From a virus (taxonomy: Duplodnaviria; Heunggongvirae; Uroviricota; Caudoviricetes): a stretch of 39,572 nt of DNA. Under the pieces are notes generated by a model, which had not been told where the DNA came from, searched no databases, and worked only from the letters and a program-made list of their open reading frames with translations. Location of the stretch: positions 1 to 39,572 of the IMG/VR virus record IMGVR_UViG_2531839178_000021; one strand, given 5' to 3'. The translations under genes and the position numbers were made by a program. Each line of letters begins with the position of its first letter. Within the stretch, counting starts at the first letter, position 1. Below, in pieces: positions 24,683 to 38,210 of the stretch.

Positions 24683-25210
24683 ATGCAGCATTTAAAAAAT
24701 ATTACGGCGGGTAATCCAAAAACGGTTGAACAATATCAATTGACAAAGGACTTTGATGTTGTCTGGTTTTTTTCAGAAGATGGTAAGAACTGGTACGAAG
24801 AACAAAAGTATTTTGCTGATGACACGATAAAAATAGCGTACGACAAAGATAATATCATCCACTATGTGGAAAAGGATGTGACAGCTATCAGACCGGATGG
24901 ATTAAGTGTTGTTGAAGTGGCGGATATTACTGCTAACCGACGGGCGGACATTTCAGGGAACTGGATGTTTAAGGACGGCAAAGTGATTAAACGCGTTTAT
25001 ACGGCAGAGGAATTACAGCAGCAGGCAGAAATTCGGAAAGCCAGACTTCTTGCAGATGCTGAATCCGTGATTTTGCCGCTGGAGCGCGCGGTCAGACTGA
25101 ACATGGCAACAGATGAGGAGCGTAGCCGACTGGAATCATGGGAACGCTACAGCGTTCTGGTCAGTCGTGTGGATCCTGCAAATCCTGAATGGCCGGAAAT
25201 GCCGCAATAA
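24683..25210 (+). CDS. G: Tail fibre assembly chaperone G
   Basis: 175-aa [44 protein letters not shown] immediately after H. Confidence 0.85.
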
Positions 25211-25259
25211 GTTGTATTAGCTTACATATCTATGGCACAGAGTAAAGCCTAATCTGACA

Positions 25260-25298
25260 GTCCGCTCTGTGCCAGGAGCAGACATTGCCAACGTTATG
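25260..25298 (+). repeat. ~39-bp direct repeat, copy A (partner at 27932-27970)
   Basis: gtccgctctgtgccaggagcagacattgccaacgttatga versus gttcgctttgtgccaggagcggacgttgccagcattgag, ~85 percent identity. Confidence 0.7.
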
Positions 25299-25769: not shown

Positions 25770-26033
25770 ATGACTGAATGGCTTAATGCACATTTTGGTG
25801 CAGACGCAGCTACCTATCTTAGCTTATTAGTCGGCGTACTGGCACTGTTTGGTATTGGGGGCGGTGTTACATATAGAATCAGACAGCAAAACAACATAAA
25901 ACAGAAGGCAAAGAAAACCGAGGGTGATGTGAACCAGGCCGGGCGGGATATTAATCAGACCACCAACGTTTACCACACATCCAATGAATCTACTGAGGAC
26001 CCTGTAAAAAAAAGCAAGATGAACATGATCTGA
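25770..26033 (+). CDS. Membrane-anchored hypothetical protein, N-terminal segment (single TM helix)
   Basis: TATAAT at 25734-25739; MTEWLNAHFGADAATYLSLLVGVLALFGIGGGV; ORF ends just after an A8 run (26006-26013) where the next ORF's frame opens. Confidence 0.55.
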   Translation: MTEWLNAHFGADAATYLSLLVGVLALFGIGGGVTYRIRQQNNIKQKAKKTEGDVNQAGRDINQTTNVYHTSNESTEDPVKKSKMNMI

Positions 26034-26056
26034 AGATAATCGACCAGATCCTTGAA

Positions 26057-26452
26057 TTGCTGCCTTATGAGGATACTACTCAATGGGTTGAGCAGAGCTA
26101 CCTGAGCGGTATACGGCAAGATGTTTGCTTAAACATTGAAAAAGCTGAAAAATTTAGCGGTGAAAAGTATCGGTTATTCAATACTGAAGTGAATGGTGCG
26201 AAAGACGCTTTTTTGGACGCTATGACCGCATACGTAGATAGTACGCTACCATTTATGAGTGTTGATTACCCGAACAGAAAGCCAGTGATGCTAAGCCTTC
26301 CCCATGACTGGAAGAGTAAGAGTGTTGAATCGGAGGCAAACTTCCGCTTTCATCAGCAAAATGTGCGTGAAACATCGGGGGGGATGATTGCGCGCTATGA
26401 GGATTTTGTCAGGACATTTAAGGCTCATGGATTCATAAGCGATAAACTGTAA
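26057..26452 (+). CDS. Hypothetical protein segment lacking an ATG start; probably the C-terminal part of one ~227-aa gene 25770-26452 broken by a 1-nt deletion
   Basis: frame open from 25997; ORF-track start is TTG; frame offset from 25770 is of deletion type. Confidence 0.5.
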   Translation: MLPYEDTTQWVEQSYLSGIRQDVCLNIEKAEKFSGEKYRLFNTEVNGAKDAFLDAMTAYVDSTLPFMSVDYPNRKPVMLSLPHDWKSKSVESEANFRFHQQNVRETSGGMIARYEDFVRTFKAHGFISDKL

Positions 26453-26545: not shown

Positions 26546-27846
26546 CTGAGGGATCCCCACAAAATTACTGCTAATAAACCAGTACCATATTTCGGTAGGT
26601 TCTGGACAGATGGTTTAGAACTGTGCTCAGTACTGTTCGTCTTAAAATAAGTGGCGAGTGTCGAAGAACATTCTTCGCTAACGTCAGATATGAGATAACC
26701 CGCCGGGATTTAATGCTGTTAGCCTGATATTTCAGGTGTAACCCTTTATTTTCAGCGTGATAACCGAGTAACCACATTACGATAGTGCTCAACGTTGCCA
26801 GCAGACTCAGAACCAGAATTCTTCCTGTTGAACGACTTTTGCTGGCCCGAAGACCAAATCCGAAGCGCCCGTTCTTTTCATCACGAAAGTTTTGCTCTAT
26901 CTGCATTCGCCGACTGTATAACTTGATGATTTCTCGCGCTCTGAAGTCATTTGTACTGCTGAAGATCAACCAGGCTTCTTTTGCTGATTTGCTCTGTTCT
27001 TTGTCTGTTTTGTTTAAACCACTCTGACCTTTCGAACGTTTCTTTTTTCGCCCTTTTGCCGATTTCTTATAGGTGTAAAAATGCCCCCGGATGCTTTTTT
27101 TCCTTTCTTTAACCAGCCTTCCAGCCCCCATATATTCCGGTGTTTTACATTCAGGGCTATCCGACACTTTTAACCATCTTTCAGGCGCGTTATCGAGGCA
27201 ATACTGAACGTTATTTCTGATCCGACCAATAAAATCCCAGCCCAGAGAAGTAATATGGTGAAACCATGCGCTCTGAAATCCAGCATCCGTGACAATAATA
27301 ACCCTGGCATCGGGGGGCAGGGATTGAGCAAGGGAATCAAGGAAATCATGTTGTATCAATGGATTATTTTGTTTTTCAGAAGGAACAACCTTACTCAATA
27401 ACGGAATGGAACGCCCGTCACACAGAAGGCTGGCACGAAGAACATGATGCTCCTGGGAGGGATAGCCACTCCAGTCTACGGCTATTACACATAAAGATAA
27501 CTGCCGTGTCAGCATTGAAGTGATATTCCTGAAAATCATTGGAATATCGCGATGGAGCGCCTCATTACCCATGAGGCGATCAATACGTTTGCTCTTATTC
27601 TTAACTTGTGCATTACCCGGGAAAAAACGTCCGATACTGGTCAGCGTCAGAGATGCTCCGTTGATTAACGCCACTGTGGCATCCATCAGGGCATTTTGTC
27701 GGTACTGATGAAATGGTGCTAAGGCATCCCGGAAGAAATTCTGACATACTTTATGAACAGGCATAGCAGTGATCTCATTGAATTGTTGGCACAAATCAGT
27801 AGATCACATAATGCTATGTCTGTCTCGTTTTCTGGGAATTCCTCAG
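26546..27846 (-). mobile_element. IS10-like (IS4-family) insertion sequence, ~1.3 kb, with 9-bp target-site duplication CCCTCCGGG
   Basis: ends CTGAGGGATCCCC (26546-) and its reverse complement (-27846); identical 9-mers at 26537-26545 and 27847-27855. Confidence 0.8.
26571..27764 (-). CDS. IS10-like transposase (~397 aa)
   Basis: KRIDRLMGN, VDWS, VLRAS, TDAGFQSAWF, SLGW, SKGRKKKRS, SAKEAW, IKLYSRRMQIEQNFRD, FGLRAS: motifs shared with the IS10 transposase. Confidence 0.8.
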   Translation of the reverse strand: MPVHKVCQNFFRDALAPFHQYRQNALMDATVALINGASLTLTSIGRFFPGNAQVKNKSKRIDRLMGNEALHRDIPMIFRNITSMLTRQLSLCVIAVDWSGYPSQEHHVLRASLLCDGRSIPLLSKVVPSEKQNNPLIQHDFLDSLAQSLPPDARVIIVTDAGFQSAWFHHITSLGWDFIGRIRNNVQYCLDNAPERWLKVSDSPECKTPEYMGAGRLVKERKKSIRGHFYTYKKSAKGRKKKRSKGQSGLNKTDKEQSKSAKEAWLIFSSTNDFRAREIIKLYSRRMQIEQNFRDEKNGRFGFGLRASKSRSTGRILVLSLLATLSTIVMWLLGYHAENKGLHLKYQANSIKSRRVISYLTLAKNVLRHSPLILRRTVLSTVLNHLSRTYRNMVLVY

Positions 27847-27931
27847 CCCTCCGGGGCGGCTTTTTTATGACTATAATCGACAGAATCACCTGAACGTCCA
27901 GGTGGGTTTCCCTGACAGGACGTCAAGGAAT

Positions 27932-27970
27932 GTTCGCTTTGTGCCAGGAGCGGACGTTGCCAGCATTGAG
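27932..27970 (+). repeat. ~39-bp direct repeat, copy B (partner at 25260-25298)
   Basis: see copy A. Confidence 0.7.
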
Positions 27971-28116
27971 TTTTCAGTTTTCAAAGGTATATCTTTAGAT
28001 TTAGTTCACTTAGAATGAGCGTGTTAAAGTTTTCGGTTATGTGAGTATATTGAACATAACAAATAAACAATAATTTTTGTATTCCATTTAGGATATAAAA
28101 AAGAGGGATTTGAGTT

Positions 28117-28902
28117 ATGTACGATTATAGTTTTTTACTTACTCCATCTACAGGATTTGTTAAAGGATTATGTGGAGTTTGGTCGAATGATTTCTCTATA
28201 AATGATGATTCTGACTCTGATTTAGGGCAAACAGATATTCATTTACTTTCATCTCCTCATTTGAATATCATATCCGACCCAAATGAATTGGCTTCCAAGT
28301 TAAAAGGTTTGTTGATGCTCATGAACGGCGCACTTAGCGTTCTTTATGGTTTTGAAAGATATCAATCTTTTGGTCCTCTTTCTATTTCTGGAAGTGAAGG
28401 CATTAATTACTCGGAAATATGCGGCTTTAAATCAATGGATGTAACTCAGGTAAACCCCTTTAATTTCCATGACATACAGCAACCACACCCTCGCGCTGAT
28501 AATTTTTCACGATTAATTAATTTATCATCTAAACATGAATCCTTACGTGTTGTTTTAGGTATGTGTGCCTTAGGTTATGATTGGGTTAATCTTTATCGTT
28601 TGTGGGAAACAATTAGAGAATATGTATATGATAAATATGTGAAAGGTATACTAAATTTCCCCGACGCTTATAAAGGCAAGAAATATCAGAGAGATAAAGT
28701 AATTAGCATGGCTTTTAATATTGATGAAAAGGAAATCAGCAGATTCACGGGCACTGCTAATAGCTTTGAACTGTTAGGGTATCTTGCGAGACATGGAAAG
28801 GGAAGTTCCGGAGGGATATTAAAAAATCCGATGTCAAGAGTTGACGCAAGCATTTTCGTACACAAAGCAACTTACAAATATTGTAAGTTATTTTTGATGT
28901 AA
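28117..28902 (+). CDS. Hypothetical cargo protein (261 aa), unknown function
   Basis: low-GC ORF with AAGAGGGA RBS; no recognisable motif. Confidence 0.6.
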   Translation: MYDYSFLLTPSTGFVKGLCGVWSNDFSINDDSDSDLGQTDIHLLSSPHLNIISDPNELASKLKGLLMLMNGALSVLYGFERYQSFGPLSISGSEGINYSEICGFKSMDVTQVNPFNFHDIQQPHPRADNFSRLINLSSKHESLRVVLGMCALGYDWVNLYRLWETIREYVYDKYVKGILNFPDAYKGKKYQRDKVISMAFNIDEKEISRFTGTANSFELLGYLARHGKGSSGGILKNPMSRVDASIFVHKATYKYCKLFLM

Positions 28903-29004
28903 GTAAAAAGTTGAAGCTATAATACTCAAAGTATCGAAAACTACGTTCGTCGTGCACTCGAAAACAATATGCTTATTGTGTCTGCACTAATTACTCAAGG
29001 TCCG

Positions 29005-29041
29005 AGAAAAATGGCGAAGCTCATCTTTTTCAGGCTTCGCC
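29005..29041 (-). terminator. Hairpin terminator between the convergent genes 28117-28902 and 29064-29816
   Basis: GGCGAAGC-13 nt loop-GCTTCGCC; on the minus strand followed by ATTTTT. Confidence 0.5.
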
Positions 29042-29063
29042 AACTTGAGTTATTGGTTAAAAT

Positions 29064-29816
29064 TCATTTAGGAATAATAGAATGCAATTCGTGACTCACC
29101 TGGATTTCATAGTGTTTCAATAGTTCTCCGATGTTAATTCCTACTACCTTACGAACTGCGCCGAGGGAGAAGTTAAGCTCCTCAATGCCCGGCCGATCTG
29201 GCGTTGAATTCATATAGTGTCGGCACGCACGGACAATTGACTCGACGATCAACGATAGCGGAGACTCAGGTGCAATCTCGGAGCGAATCGCCGTAAGAGA
29301 GAGTCGGAGCTCCTTCAAAGAATCCGAGACTCGTGCTGGATCCTCTTGAGCATATGGCAGATAAAGAGAACTCTTGTCTTCCAATAAATGGATCAACCGC
29401 AGAGCAATTTTCTCGTCTGGGCGATGCGATAGAAATTGAAACATTAGCCTCTTTCCTCCCTCCAAGCACTCCTTCATTAGTGATTCGTGGTCACGTTTCC
29501 ATTTTCGCAAATACTCGGCGGGGTAGCCCATACCGCCATTCTTATCAACTAAATCAGCACAAGCTCCGCACAACCATATAGCATTTTTTATGCTCTTCCG
29601 CTCTGTTTCTGACTGAGACATGTCATAGCGCGGTCCGCCAGGGCTCGCCGCGCAGATATGCGCCGCCTCACCCGTCTTGATAGAAAGATTTTCCGCCAAT
29701 TGATCCGGGCCGATTGTTACCCTATGACAAGAGGGATTGCTACAAATATATGTAGCGCGCTCTGCTACCTTACCTACAACGCTTGGAGGAAAGTTGTGCC
29801 TATTTGTCTTGGTCAT
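29064..29816 (-). CDS. Hypothetical protein with N-terminal Cys/His cluster resembling an HNH/His-Me-finger nuclease motif
   Basis: YICSNPSCH ... AAHICAASPGG ... NAIWLCGACADLVD; mid-GC; the IS630 copy lies ~70 bp upstream of its start. Confidence 0.45.
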   Translation of the reverse strand: MTKTNRHNFPPSVVGKVAERATYICSNPSCHRVTIGPDQLAENLSIKTGEAAHICAASPGGPRYDMSQSETERKSIKNAIWLCGACADLVDKNGGMGYPAEYLRKWKRDHESLMKECLEGGKRLMFQFLSHRPDEKIALRLIHLLEDKSSLYLPYAQEDPARVSDSLKELRLSLTAIRSEIAPESPLSLIVESIVRACRHYMNSTPDRPGIEELNFSLGAVRKVVGINIGELLKHYEIQVSHELHSIIPK

Positions 29817-29887
29817 AAAAGTTATGCTTCTTTGTTTTTTTCATCTATGTGGGGAGAATAAAATCATACTTTTTATATCTGATCCTA

Positions 29888-31041
29888 AATAGCTGCGCTT
29901 AATACCGCTACACTTTTGCCAGTCCATGTTTGCCTCCGGGGAATGGGCTGACGGTTTCCATAAAATGGCGAACTTTTTTCAACAGTTGCCACATTGAGCG
30001 GCACTGATGATTACGCGTTATTGTGTCGTGAAGTGCCTGCCATAGCCGTTCAACATGATTCACCCATGGCGAGTAAACCGGCTGATAAATGACCCTGAAC
30101 TTCGGGTTCTCCTTCAGCCAGCTCTGTGTTTCCCGGCTTTTGTGGATAATGTAGTTGTCCACGATCAGCGTGATGGTTTTCGCCCGACGCTATGTCGCTT
30201 TAAGCCGCTTCAGCAGGCTGATGAACAGCGCCGAACTTTTTGCTGTTGCCGCCCACATAGCTGACTTTACCTGTCCCGCTGTGCAGCGCTCCGGCCAGAT
30301 AATATTTTTCATTCTGTCCCGGCGTGACCACCCGTTTTTGCTGTCCGCGCAGTTGCCAGTCCGCACCGATTTTGGGATGAAGATGGATATCCACTTCATC
30401 TTCATAAAAGACCGGATGCTCTGCGCTGCATTCGTCCAGTGCTTTATGGATTGCTGCCATCTTTTCATCTTTATGCGGGTCACGGATACGCAGAGTTGGC
30501 GCAGCCCTTCGCCACACAATCCCCGCAGACGGCAACCAGCGGCGAACGGTTCCGGCATTTAACTGGCAACCGGTTATCTCATTGATTTTTATTGCCAGCA
30601 GTTCTGTACTCCAGCGTGAACGCTGGTAGCCAAAGTCGCCGGGAGAATGTTTTACCAGCTCACGTAACAGTGTGCAGATATGCTCAAACGGCCAGCGACG
30701 GGCACGCCCGGCAGGTAATGATTTCAGTCCCTCAACACCCGACTGCGTGAACCAGTTAATCCAGCGTCCAACAGAGGAACGGGCGCAGCAGAGCGTTCTG
30801 GCAACGTCGCTGACACGGTCGCCCCGGTGCAGCATCAGCATGGCAGTCAGTCTGCGGGCATAATTTTTATCGTGTGTTTTATGGATGGCTTTCTGCATCA
30901 GGCGTCGTTCGTCACGGGAAATTGGTGCTATGATCGGCATTGCTCAGTCCGGTTGGTGATTTGTTTTGATTTGGCGATTGATCAGATCGCACAATCCGGG
31001 CTAAGTTCCCTCAAAATGATCTACTATTCCGCGCAGCTATT
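29888..31041 (-). mobile_element. IS630-family insertion sequence (1154 bp), TA duplication within a CTAG target
   Basis: terminal repeats aatagctgcgc (29888-) and gcgcagctatt (-31041); TA at 29886-29887 and 31042-31043 flanked by C and G. Confidence 0.85.
29908..30940 (-). pseudogene. IS630 transposase, split into two ORFs (30200-30940 and 29908-30162) by a frame break
   Basis: N-part MPIIAPISRDERRLMQKAIHKTHDKNYARRL.. and C-part ..NYIIHKSRETQSWLKENPKFRVIYQPVYSPWVNHVERLW together approximate the recalled single 343-aa IS630 transposase. Confidence 0.75.
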
Positions 31042-31214
31042 TAGGTCTGACCAGCAACCTATTGATCAAAAAACCAAGATATTAGCTAAAAAAATCAGCA
31101 TACTTGAGACCAAGCTCAATGTCCGCTCCTCGCTCAAAGCAGACTGTCAGATTTGATAGCATTTGGGCTATGTAAATTGTCAGGCGGAAAATGAGTGAGT
31201 ACAAATCAGGACAG

Positions 31215-31336: not shown

Positions 31337-32527
31337 ATGAGTGACTATCATCACGGCGTGCAGGTGCTGGAGATTAACGACGGCACCCGCGTCATTTCCA
31401 CCGTATCCACGGCCATTGTCGGCATGGTCTGCACGGCCAGCGATGCAGATGCGGAAACCTTCCCCTTCAATAAACCGGTGCTGATTACCAATGTGCAGAG
31501 CGCAATTGCAAAGGCCGGTAAAAAAGGCACGCTGGCGGCGTCGTTACAGGCCATCGCTGACCAGTCAAAACCGGTCACCGTTGTTGTGCGCGTGGAAGAC
31601 GGCACCGGCGACGACGAAGAAACGAAGCTCGCGCAGACCGTTTCCAATATCATCGGCACCACCGACGAAAACGGTCAGTACACCGGACTGAAAGCCCTGC
31701 TGGCGGCGGAGTCGGTAACCGGTGTTAAACCGCGCATTCTCGGTGTGCCGGGACTGGATACCAAAGAGGTGGCTGTTGCACTGGCATCAGTCTGTCAGAA
31801 GCTGCGCGCTTTCGGGTATATCAGCGCATGGGGCTGTAAAACCATTTCCGAGGTGAAAGCCTACCGCCAGAATTTCAGCCAGCGTGAGCTGATGGTCATC
31901 TGGCCGGATTTCCTCGCATGGGATACGGTCACCAGTACCACCTCCACCGCGTATGCCACCGCCCGTGCGCTGGGGCTGCGCGCTAAAATCGACCAGGAGC
32001 AGGGCTGGCATAAAACGCTGTCCAACGTCGGGGTGAACGGTGTTACCGGCATCAGCGCGTCCGTATTCTGGGATTTGCAGGAGTCCGGCACCGATGCTGA
32101 CCTGCTTAACGAGTCAGGCGTCACAACGCTGATTCGCCGTGACGGTTTCCGCTTCTGGGGTAACCGTACCTGCTCTGATGACCCGCTGTTCCTCTTTGAA
32201 AACTACACCCGCACCGCGCAGGTGCTGGCCGACACGATGGCTGAGGCGCACATGTGGGCGGTGGACAAGCCCATCACCGCAACGCTGATTCGCGACATCG
32301 TTGACGGCATCAATGCCAAATTCCGTGAGCTGAAAACAAACGGCTATATCGTGGATGCGACCTGCTGGTTCAGCGAAGAATCCAACGATGCGGAAACCCT
32401 CAAGGCCGGAAAACTGTATATCGACTACGACTATACACCGGTGCCTCCTCTCGAAAACCTGACCCTGCGCCAGCGTATTACCGATAAATACCTGGCAAAT
32501 CTGGTCACCTCGGTTAACAGCAATTAA
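31337..32527 (+). CDS. FI: Tail sheath protein FI
   Basis: 396-aa ORF MSDYHHGVQVLEINDGTRVISTVSTAIVGMV. Confidence 0.9.
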   Translation: MSDYHHGVQVLEINDGTRVISTVSTAIVGMVCTASDADAETFPFNKPVLITNVQSAIAKAGKKGTLAASLQAIADQSKPVTVVVRVEDGTGDDEETKLAQTVSNIIGTTDENGQYTGLKALLAAESVTGVKPRILGVPGLDTKEVAVALASVCQKLRAFGYISAWGCKTISEVKAYRQNFSQRELMVIWPDFLAWDTVTSTTSTAYATARALGLRAKIDQEQGWHKTLSNVGVNGVTGISASVFWDLQESGTDADLLNESGVTTLIRRDGFRFWGNRTCSDDPLFLFENYTRTAQVLADTMAEAHMWAVDKPITATLIRDIVDGINAKFRELKTNGYIVDATCWFSEESNDAETLKAGKLYIDYDYTPVPPLENLTLRQRITDKYLANLVTSVNSN

Positions 32528-38039: not shown

Positions 38040-38066
38040 AAAAAATAAGCCCGTGTAAGGGAGATT
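38040..38066. other. attR: attR: 27-bp P2-type attachment core at the prophage/host junction
   Basis: AAAAAATAAGCCCGTGTAAGGGAGATT matches the recalled P2 att core; lies between ogr and the host gene. Confidence 0.7.
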
Positions 38067-38210
38067 ACACAGGCTAAGGAGGTGGTTCCTGGTACAGCTA
38101 GCATTTTATGGGTTATGTTTTTCAGCGAAACGGATGATAACCTTAATAAATGCAGCTGTATGTGATCGGTTTCTAAGAATTTTCCATCCGGGAAAAATAA
38201 TCGAAATTAA

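Follow-up and report, generated by a model that had tools for sequence, protein, structure and literature searches.

The defence gene DS-29, also termed 'HEP3', was reported as a single-gene unit with a positive defence score (defensive=TRUE, Table S6) in the DefensePredictor study (PMC13092281; Science 2026, doi 10.1126/science.adv7924). The corresponding protein, WP_061089765.1, originates from the ECOR contig NZ_RRWI01000012.1 (positions 2077-2862), on which the gene of 261 codons is preceded by a gene for a 227-aa protein and followed by a gene for a 250-aa protein on the opposite strand (PMC13092281). The plaque-assay values given for DS-29 are 6.3 for Bas60, 5 for T4, 3.7 for Candy and 1.3 for RB69, which we read as log10 reductions, and DS-29 is counted among the systems with homologues out to the Halobacteria (PMC13092281). 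A second line of work has described proteins with a DUF6650 domain as ThsG, the effector of type VI Thoeris, which is paired with TIR proteins making 2' cyclic ADP-ribose (2'cADPR); the domain is common to the effectors that accompany each of the three 2'cADPR-producing TIRs investigated, cells with those systems stop growing when 2'cADPR is added, AlphaFold3 predicts a hexameric ring with basic pockets, and the killing mode of members without transmembrane helices was left open (bioRxiv 10.64898/2025.12.03.692087). Finally, in P2-like and P4-like elements defence cargo is exchanged at hotspots by a recombination process that 'still needs to be elucidated' (bioRxiv 10.64898/2026.02.27.708500). 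Here, we analysed a stretch of 39,572 nucleotides of a tailed-phage record (Caudoviricetes; IMG/VR record IMGVR_UViG_2531839178_000021), referred to as the window, in which a 261-aa gene (28117-28902, plus strand) and a 250-aa gene (29064-29816, minus strand) face each other. We consider it probable that the two form a 2.05-kb mobile cassette of two autonomous single-gene anti-phage systems, DS-29 and an HNH-DUF6650 protein, and that a P2-like prophage carries this cassette, beside a third cargo gene, at its G-FI (Z/fun) hotspot.

In its general layout, the locus is as an earlier note on this DNA had described it from the letters alone. Both open reading frames (ORFs) were found at the positions given above, convergent and 161 bp apart; the 261-aa gene is low in G+C (0.349) and preceded by the Shine-Dalgarno sequence GAGGG about 8 nt ahead of its ATG, and the 250-aa gene is of intermediate G+C (0.479), compared to 0.503 in the window as a whole and 0.569 in the tail-sheath gene FI. 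As many conserved homologues were found for each of them, both ORFs are, judged by sequence conservation, real genes and not chance frames. The flanking genes are the tail-fibre-assembly gene G (24683-25210) and FI (31337-32527), in accordance with the RefSeq annotation of an equivalent locus free of insertion sequences (IS), L002. These flanks and the IS-free equivalent bear out the earlier placement of the genes as cargo at the P2 G-FI position, in that non-backbone DNA lies between G and FI and a non-P2 island (L001) carries this cargo as well. The phage GenBank collection contained no near match to the cassette. Between the convergent genes, an inverted repeat with an 8-bp stem, GGCGAAGC-N13-GCTTCGCC (29013-29041, no strand assigned), was read from the sequence and is probably a bidirectional terminator shared by both.

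The AT-rich gene, in which the earlier note had seen no recognisable motif, turned out to be a published and validated defence gene with a presumably HEPN-like fold, DS-29. Its product is identical to WP_061089765.1 in 260 of 261 residues, the sole change being I246, which is N in the tested protein and falls on a column that is variable among homologues; the identity of WP_061089765.1 was taken from the RefSeq annotation of the L001 copy and confirmed by sequence in the supplement of PMC13092281. The gene is already known, and our analysis adds little to it beyond one more copy and its context. Close homologues fall into 32 clusters, of which the named ones are mostly from Enterobacterales, and a profile search across 1.84 billion representatives retrieved 1167 at E<=1e-3, the listed matches being mostly full-length and about 230-290 aa long. 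The published part of the proposed function is that DS-29 alone blocks T-even and other coliphages (PMC13092281). As to how, the AlphaFold2 model (mean predicted local distance difference test score (pLDDT) 82.9, predicted template modelling score (pTM) 0.83) suggests a HEPN-like fold in the C-terminal half, with weak support from sequence. When 50 family members that are 20-30% identical were compared, no motif other than R225-H226-G227 proved invariant, and S46, G71, L159, Y160, F210 and N215 were nearly so. RHG is likely the catalytic centre. We infer from this that DS-29 may be an RNase: the HEPN-like helical bundle would be activated by infection and built around the RHG motif, while the small N-terminal domain would regulate or sense. 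Several points weigh against this assignment. Since R225-H226-G227 are the sole invariant residues, the canonical HEPN motif Rx4-6H is absent; there is no conserved R with an H at a spacing of 4-6, and R and H are adjacent instead. Model confidence is moreover lowest in the RHG loop (residues 221-232, pLDDT <50). The 261-aa protein has no sequence match in Pfam, NCBIfam, PADLOC, PHROG or PDB even at permissive thresholds, and a comparison of ten distant homologues with Pfam likewise returned nothing. Finally, the HEPN label of DS-29 in the original study rests on an HHpred match to PF18867 whose probability, by that study's own account, is only 0.59 (PMC13092281).

The product of the 250-aa gene combines a putative nuclease of the type found in the effector Cap5 of the cyclic oligonucleotide-based antiphage signalling system (CBASS) with a second, helical domain. 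Its residues 1-120 match the PADLOC models PDC-M68A (6.6e-24), CBASS 'Effector endonuclease' (2e-19) and SAVED-HNH (2e-18), the SAVED-HNH models matching the HNH part only (residues 18-117). A profile of the family identified the PDB entry 9om4 (3.4e-14) and the Cap5 structures 8ysq, 7rwk, 7rwm and 8fm1 at 1e-9 to 1e-6. Among 33 homologues, C24, C29, H52, N77, C82, C85 and H109 are invariant. The Cx4C-H...H...N...Cx2C arrangement that had been pointed out earlier is thus real and conserved in the form of these residues, and the CX4C...CX2C part would constitute a zinc site, while the second His of the arrangement (H30) is not conserved. Where the classical HNH motif has its last His, these proteins have Ala or Ser; close to this position, D90-K91-N92 is invariant. 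As defence HNH models (PADLOC, 1e-18 to 1e-24), Cap5 structures and the invariant Cys, His and Asn residues agree, the previous interpretation as an HNH/His-Me-finger nuclease is right at the level of sequence. The structure model of the HNH half is poor (pLDDT 40-60). More than 400 homologues, counted as clusters, were retrieved, including some from Pseudomonadota, Bacteroidota and Verrucomicrobiota. Against a role in defence it has to be considered that the protein, WP_059356353.1, is absent from the table of tested units and appears as a prediction only, with a mean log-odds of 5.5 and a range from -1.4 to 8.3 (PMC13092281). Literature searches for PDC-M68 or for the protein accessions retrieved nothing.

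A simpler reading of the 250-aa protein would be that of a constitutive DNA nuclease, either a modification-dependent type IV enzyme similar to McrA, in which the C-terminal domain serves DNA recognition or dimerisation, or a homing endonuclease. It is indeed encoded by a stand-alone HNH gene without a methyltransferase at moron positions of prophages, as is mcrA in e14. One homologue adjoins a gene for a type IIG-like methylase-nuclease, and the DefensePredictor table gives an HHblits link to 'Type_II_REases HNH endonuclease' (PMC13092281). However, the closest relatives of the HNH domain are the ligand-gated Cap5 effectors and not McrA or homing enzymes, and the four-helix bundle of DUF6650 is unlike known readers of modified bases. 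With respect to homing, the corresponding 'HNH endonuclease' family of PHROG scores only 0.009, and the gene lies neither in nor beside a conserved phage gene, unlike homing genes. We therefore regard a constitutive nuclease as very improbable.

The C-terminal part of the protein (about residues 125-250) is, by profile comparison, a genuine DUF6650 homologue. RefSeq names the protein a DUF6650 family protein, and precomputed PF20355.5 assignments were present on all homologues among the matches listed; a direct scan with PF20355.3 remained below threshold, with hits in 7 of 33 members and a best E of 7e-4. An independent bridge is provided by a stand-alone 158-aa protein of another prophage (L184:3453-3929, phrog_29952), which passes the Pfam cut-off for DUF6650 (58.9 versus 27 bits) and aligns to the C-terminal profile of the family with an hhalign probability of 98.7% (E 4e-16, 119 columns). 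Within this domain R170, R221 and K222 are invariant in the 33 homologues, and R198 is nearly so. When homologues were sought with the C-terminal domain as the sole query, all matches proved to be N-terminally truncated members of this family, and none had a ThsG-like architecture. Judged by its sequence, HNH-DUF6650 would represent a new architecture, that is, an effector of the Cap5 clade of HNH proteins which carries DUF6650 in place of SAVED and is encoded alone.

Proteins with the same HNH module were observed in other settings. In a metagenome-assembled genome of the Pseudomonadota (L041, 4775-6927), a gene for a 405-aa TIR protein is translationally coupled, by overlapping stop and start codons, to that of a 311-aa HNH protein which shares the module and ends in an unrelated domain; the two resemble a so far undescribed pair of the Thoeris type, in which an HNH protein would be the effector. 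In P2-like prophages (L127, 1088-2299; also L174), the G-FI hotspot holds a 403-aa protein in which the module is joined to an AAA/ABC-type ATPase, with weak matches to GajA and PtuA. As the module is fused to SAVED, DUF6650 or an ATPase, or occurs in a TIR-coupled form, at different loci, this HNH clade may be regarded as a reusable effector module set on various sensors, which supports a gated nuclease. In a Klebsiella-type assembly (GCA_054849875.1; L094, 3117-4806), the cassette is directly preceded by genes for a 260-aa TIR protein and for a protein with an SRAP domain, in an island adjacent to smpB and with no obvious Thoeris effector next to the TIR gene. The TIR gene is two genes upstream of the cassette and outside its boundary. 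It may be there by coincidence, as part of a defence island, or its product may be able to signal to the DUF6650 nuclease.

From these findings it might be speculated that HNH-DUF6650 is an orphan effector similar to that of type VI Thoeris, which would not sense infection itself but be switched on by 2'cADPR, or by a related isomer of ADP-ribose, made by a TIR protein encoded elsewhere in the cell, so that the prophage would plug into host signalling. The shared domain, the growth arrest upon addition of 2'cADPR described above (bioRxiv 10.64898/2025.12.03.692087) and the homology of the C-terminal domain to DUF6650 all speak for this possibility; R170, R221, K222 and R198 would suit a phosphate-binding pocket, and the same HNH clade is ligand-gated in Cap5. 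The TIR-coupled HNH protein of L041 and the TIR gene near the cassette in Klebsiella point in the same direction. However, the protein of L041 has a different C-terminal domain, and among the loci with full-length homologues that were searched only L094 has a TIR gene, which is not part of the 2.05-kb cassette. In the 39.6-kb window, an iterative search seeded with the TIR protein of L094 identified no TIR homologue, so that membership in type VI Thoeris is not indicated. E. coli MG1655 is not known to possess a Thoeris system. In this strain, DS-27, which is also a DUF6650 protein, defends as a single gene (PMC13092281). Taken together, we regard activation by a TIR product in trans as unlikely. 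We hold the related idea to be just as doubtful, namely that the protein is a free-standing signal-gated DNase without a synthase of its own that listens for TIR-made molecules of the 2'cADPR type or reacts when phage sponges disturb them. According to our preferred reading, that of an autonomous single-gene system, the 250-aa protein would be an HNH DNase of the clade of the CBASS effector Cap5 with DUF6650 replacing SAVED. DUF6650 would keep it silent, probably in oligomeric form, and DNA would be cut once an infection cue arrives; this cue would more likely be sensed by the protein itself than consist of a TIR-made nucleotide provided in trans. In this general sense, HNH-DUF6650 plausibly works by analogy to the effectors of CBASS and type VI Thoeris.

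The question of whether the two genes form one system or two was addressed by their distribution. Of 5426 complete E. coli genomes, 15 contain the 2041 bp at 27847-29887 with 99.6-99.8% identity, and the pair is intact in all of these. Two IS-free contexts were read, L001 (NZ_CP075062) and L002 (NZ_CM176588). L002 is the remnant of a P2-like prophage in which the tail-fibre assembly gene is followed by the 227-aa gene, the 261-aa gene, the 250-aa gene on the opposite strand and the tail-sheath gene; L001 is a chromosomal island with the same three genes between a GTPase/Ag43 block and a type I restriction-modification system with DarTG. At 94% identity the cassette was found in three Klebsiella-type contexts, which comprise at least two further settings. 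One is a leading region similar to those of plasmids or integrative and conjugative elements (ICEs) that encodes ArdA and SSB and was present in a Klebsiella-type assembly as well as in a metagenome contig; the other is the island adjacent to smpB. Altogether, E. coli and Klebsiella carry the 2.05-kb pair cassette in no fewer than four types of surroundings, at 94-99.8% identity. Beyond this group the partners separate. DS-29 homologues at 45-85% identity without the HNH gene are present in Klebsiella aerogenes, Pantoea (on an ICE), Citrobacter, Proteus and one further lineage; the Proteus cassette has kept both flanks and lacks exactly the HNH gene, and the Citrobacter copy retains the last 81 bp of the HNH gene as a deletion scar. 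Conversely, a 54%-identical homologue of HNH-DUF6650 stands alone in E. coli, as a moron on the opposite strand between the Q and holin genes of lambdoid prophages, and the more distant HNH-DUF6650 loci (L007-L089) all lack homologues of the 227-aa and 261-aa proteins. At 21 loci with full-length or nearly full-length HNH-DUF6650 homologues from diverse phyla, an all-against-all comparison of neighbours revealed no conserved neighbour, and Pfam scans of ten immediate neighbours gave nothing recurrent.

As distant relatives carry each gene alone, the two are unlikely to belong to one system, and the distribution indicates two autonomous genes that are linked only by co-transfer. The contrary view would be that of a two-component system, either sensor and effector or toxin and antitoxin, in which the 261-aa protein controls the HNH nuclease. 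That every E. coli and Klebsiella copy seen has both genes together, including 15 of 15 E. coli genomes and the Klebsiella-type contexts, weighs for this view and against ours, as does the fact that the block moves with fixed spacing and with a shared hairpin between the genes; because the genes are together in all these copies, there may be a functional link within the E. coli/Klebsiella clade. On the other hand, DS-29 alone strongly protects (PMC13092281), the genes are convergent and not co-transcribed, each exists alone in more distant relatives, and the Proteus cassette has the same ends with exactly the HNH gene missing. The phyletic spreads differ as well, with 32 clusters for the 261-aa protein versus more than 400 across phyla for the 250-aa protein. 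Overall, a two-component system appears quite improbable to us. The earlier suggestion of separate acquisitions, which was based on the difference in G+C content, is accordingly to be divided: the long-run origins of the two genes do differ, as seen from the phyletic spreads and the Proteus cassette, but at this locus they represent a single 2.05-kb block that is 94-99.8% identical between contexts.

The boundaries of this block are marked by a hairpin motif, GTYYGCTYTGWGCSAGGAGCRGAC, of 24 nt with an 8-9 bp stem and a predicted stability of -9.6 to -10.9 kcal/mol (RNA parameters). The window contains three copies, compared to 0.31 expected by chance. Copy 1, GTCCGCTCTGTGCCAGGAGCAGAC (25260-25283, plus strand), lies 50 nt past the stop codon of G at the left edge of all cargo; copy 2, GTTCGCTTTGTGCCAGGAGCGGAC (27932-27955, plus strand), follows the 227-aa gene at the left edge of the DS-29 and HNH-DUF6650 cassette; and copy 3, GTCTGCTTTGAGCGAGGAGCGGAC (31121-31144, minus strand), is located 193 nt before FI at the right edge of both the cassette and all cargo. 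Several comparisons agree with these edges. Homology with the non-P2 island L001 begins at 25237, those E. coli islands in which the 227-aa gene is followed by other cargo cease to match exactly past copy 2, and homology with Klebsiella, Citrobacter and Proteus starts at copy 2. A scan of IMG/VR identified 109 stretches with the motif (L101-L209), and it is also found in L001, L002, L090, L091 and L184. Among them, 21 P2-like loci with G and FI have differing cargo between the same two hairpin motifs: the motif is fixed 65 (or 53) nt after G in 19, its inverted copy is 193 (once 197) nt before FI in 14, and at least ten different sequences begin immediately after ...GCGGAC. Cassettes in CP4-type islands are framed by the motif as well. 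In the prophage L184 (2245-5310), four direct copies separate single-gene units; these encode the stand-alone 158-aa DUF6650 protein mentioned above (phrog_29952), two small transmembrane proteins and a GIY-YIG protein. Judged from these sequence comparisons, the hairpins could be conserved anchors at which cargo is exchanged, by short-homology recombination or by a dedicated enzyme. In our proposal, they would delimit the cassette and its neighbouring cargo and serve as swap points between P2-like prophages, CP4-type islands and other elements. A comparison by eye with integron attC sites (R''/R' cores, RYYYAAC...GTTRRRY, and an IntI integrase nearby) showed that the letters following the hairpin (GTTGCCA, ATTGCCA) deviate from GTTRRRY; an integron integrase was not searched for systematically. 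A literature search for the motif sequence found nothing. To judge by its title, an earlier paper (Nilsson et al. 2004, Mol Biol Evol 21:1; cited in PMC9122126) proposed such a site, and it may already have described the hairpin motif.

The third cargo gene, a homologue of WP_000141343.1 coding for 227 aa with an N-terminal transmembrane helix (25770-26452, plus strand), is a pseudogene in the window. A run of nine A is reduced to eight by a 1-nt deletion (at about 26006-26013), which splits the frame into ORFs of 87 and 131 aa; the gene is intact in L001 and L002 (L002, 5233-5916). The protein has no match in Pfam, PADLOC or PHROG, and DefensePredictor scores it as defensive with a log-odds of 5.3, which is a prediction only (PMC13092281). 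The gene is present in 31 E. coli genomes, beside the GTPase gene of CP4-type islands, and is followed by varying cargo, which may be the DS-29 pair, a DUF2971 gene or a gene for a 366-aa protein; in about half of the 31, the downstream cargo differs. A single three-gene system including the 227-aa gene was considered and rejected, as about half of the 31 E. coli carriers have other cargo and the Klebsiella contexts lack the 227-aa gene. DUF2971 genes were seen in two settings: one adjoins the DS-29 homologue in Klebsiella aerogenes (L003-L005, 5141-5896), and another occupies the slot of the DS-29 pair in E. coli SE11 (L091, 8246-8974). The validated DefensePredictor unit DS-45 has the working name '2971', probably after DUF2971.

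Two IS elements have entered the locus. The first is a copy of the IS4-like ISSfl1 (26546-27846, minus strand; transposase ORF 26571-27794) with the 9-bp target duplication CCCTCCGGG, which has interrupted the intrinsic terminator of the 227-aa gene precisely within its stem-loop. Neither this element nor the third cargo gene had been mentioned in the earlier note. Among 5426 complete E. coli genomes, a full-length ISSfl1 copy occurs in only one. As this copy lies 270 bp upstream of DS-29, native expression of DS-29 may here differ from that of the tested copy. The second is an IS630 element (29888-31041, minus strand; CTAG/TA target), whose transposase frame is split into ORFs of 246 and 84 aa, with an alignment to reference copies that is off by one base in length; the copy is probably inactive. 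Its distance from the start codon of HNH-DUF6650, previously estimated at about 70 bp, was measured as 71 bp. The comparison with IS630-free loci that had been proposed recovered the gene order before insertion and no upstream operon: in these loci, the 250-aa gene is followed by only about 366 bp of intergenic DNA up to FI. IS630 thus cut no operon, contrary to one part of what had been suggested, whereas the other part stands in that the element may displace the promoter of HNH-DUF6650; a promoter scan upstream of this gene revealed no consensus site. Likewise, the supposed orphan C-terminal ORF fragment beyond the element (31046-31156) proved to be a spurious frame, since the same DNA is intergenic in IS-free loci, where the frame continues, in antisense orientation, into the HNH gene at its 5' end. 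With the third gene frameshifted and two IS elements near both remaining genes, the locus in the window is decaying. The combination of the rare ISSfl1, the pseudogene and the IS630 copy suggests that the window stems from a Shigella-type genome. Near the right end of the window, a gene for the small RNA CyaR/RyeE was detected (38043-38128, minus strand; Rfam, 100.7 bits), past the final phage-like ORFs and so probably in host DNA. No tRNA gene is present in the window.

In our opinion, the useful part of these results concerns HNH-DUF6650, as DUF6650 is here linked to a nuclease whose type is known, in a widespread family of more than 400 clusters, which provides a handle on the function of the domain. 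If the reading as an orphan effector were true after all, Thoeris signalling would be extended in trans from a prophage, and DUF6650 effectors would gain a clear killing mechanism, which the ThsG preprint left open for members without transmembrane helices. The hairpin-bounded cassettes bear on the question of recombination raised by the preprint on P2 and P4 (bioRxiv 10.64898/2026.02.27.708500).

How, then, does the locus compare with described systems? Cap5 of CBASS (SAVED-HNH; 7rwk, 7rwm, 8fm1, 8ysq) has a homologous N-terminal HNH domain and follows the same logic of a nuclease joined to a regulatory or sensor domain. It differs in that its sensor is SAVED and its length about 385 aa, whereas the protein in the window carries DUF6650, is 250 aa long and has no CD-NTase or other signal-producing gene adjacent; without a SAVED domain and a cyclase gene in the cassette, it does not belong to CBASS. 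The best PADLOC match, PDC-M68A, extends over the HNH domain only (positions 5-113 of the 253-position model), and as the C-terminal half of the model is unmatched, the 250-aa protein is not a full-length member of that group. ThsG has the DUF6650 domain in common with the 250-aa protein, but consists of DUF6650 alone or with transmembrane helices and is always encoded beside a TIR (ThsB) gene, while in the window DUF6650 is fused to HNH and no TIR gene accompanies it. DS-27 ('SMEK') is similar in being a single-gene defence without a partner and with a reported C-terminal DUF6650 behind a different N-terminal domain (PMC13092281), which is SMEK and not HNH. An hhalign comparison of the 250-aa family profile with the single DS-27 sequence detected no similarity, so that any kinship of the two would exist only via the Pfam family. 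With regard to its position, the locus corresponds to Z/fun of P2 and to the variable loci of P2-like phages, with exchangeable defence cargo at the same place between G and FI. The two IS insertions and the frameshift of the present copy set it apart from the swapping 'without pseudogenization' and with few transposable elements that has been reported (bioRxiv 10.64898/2026.02.27.708500); they are unusual against the background of P2 hotspots and ordinary for an IS-rich Shigella-type genome. In the occurrence of near-identical cargo in other mobile elements and in chromosomal islands, the cassette is again like the variable loci of P2 (bioRxiv 10.64898/2026.02.27.708500).

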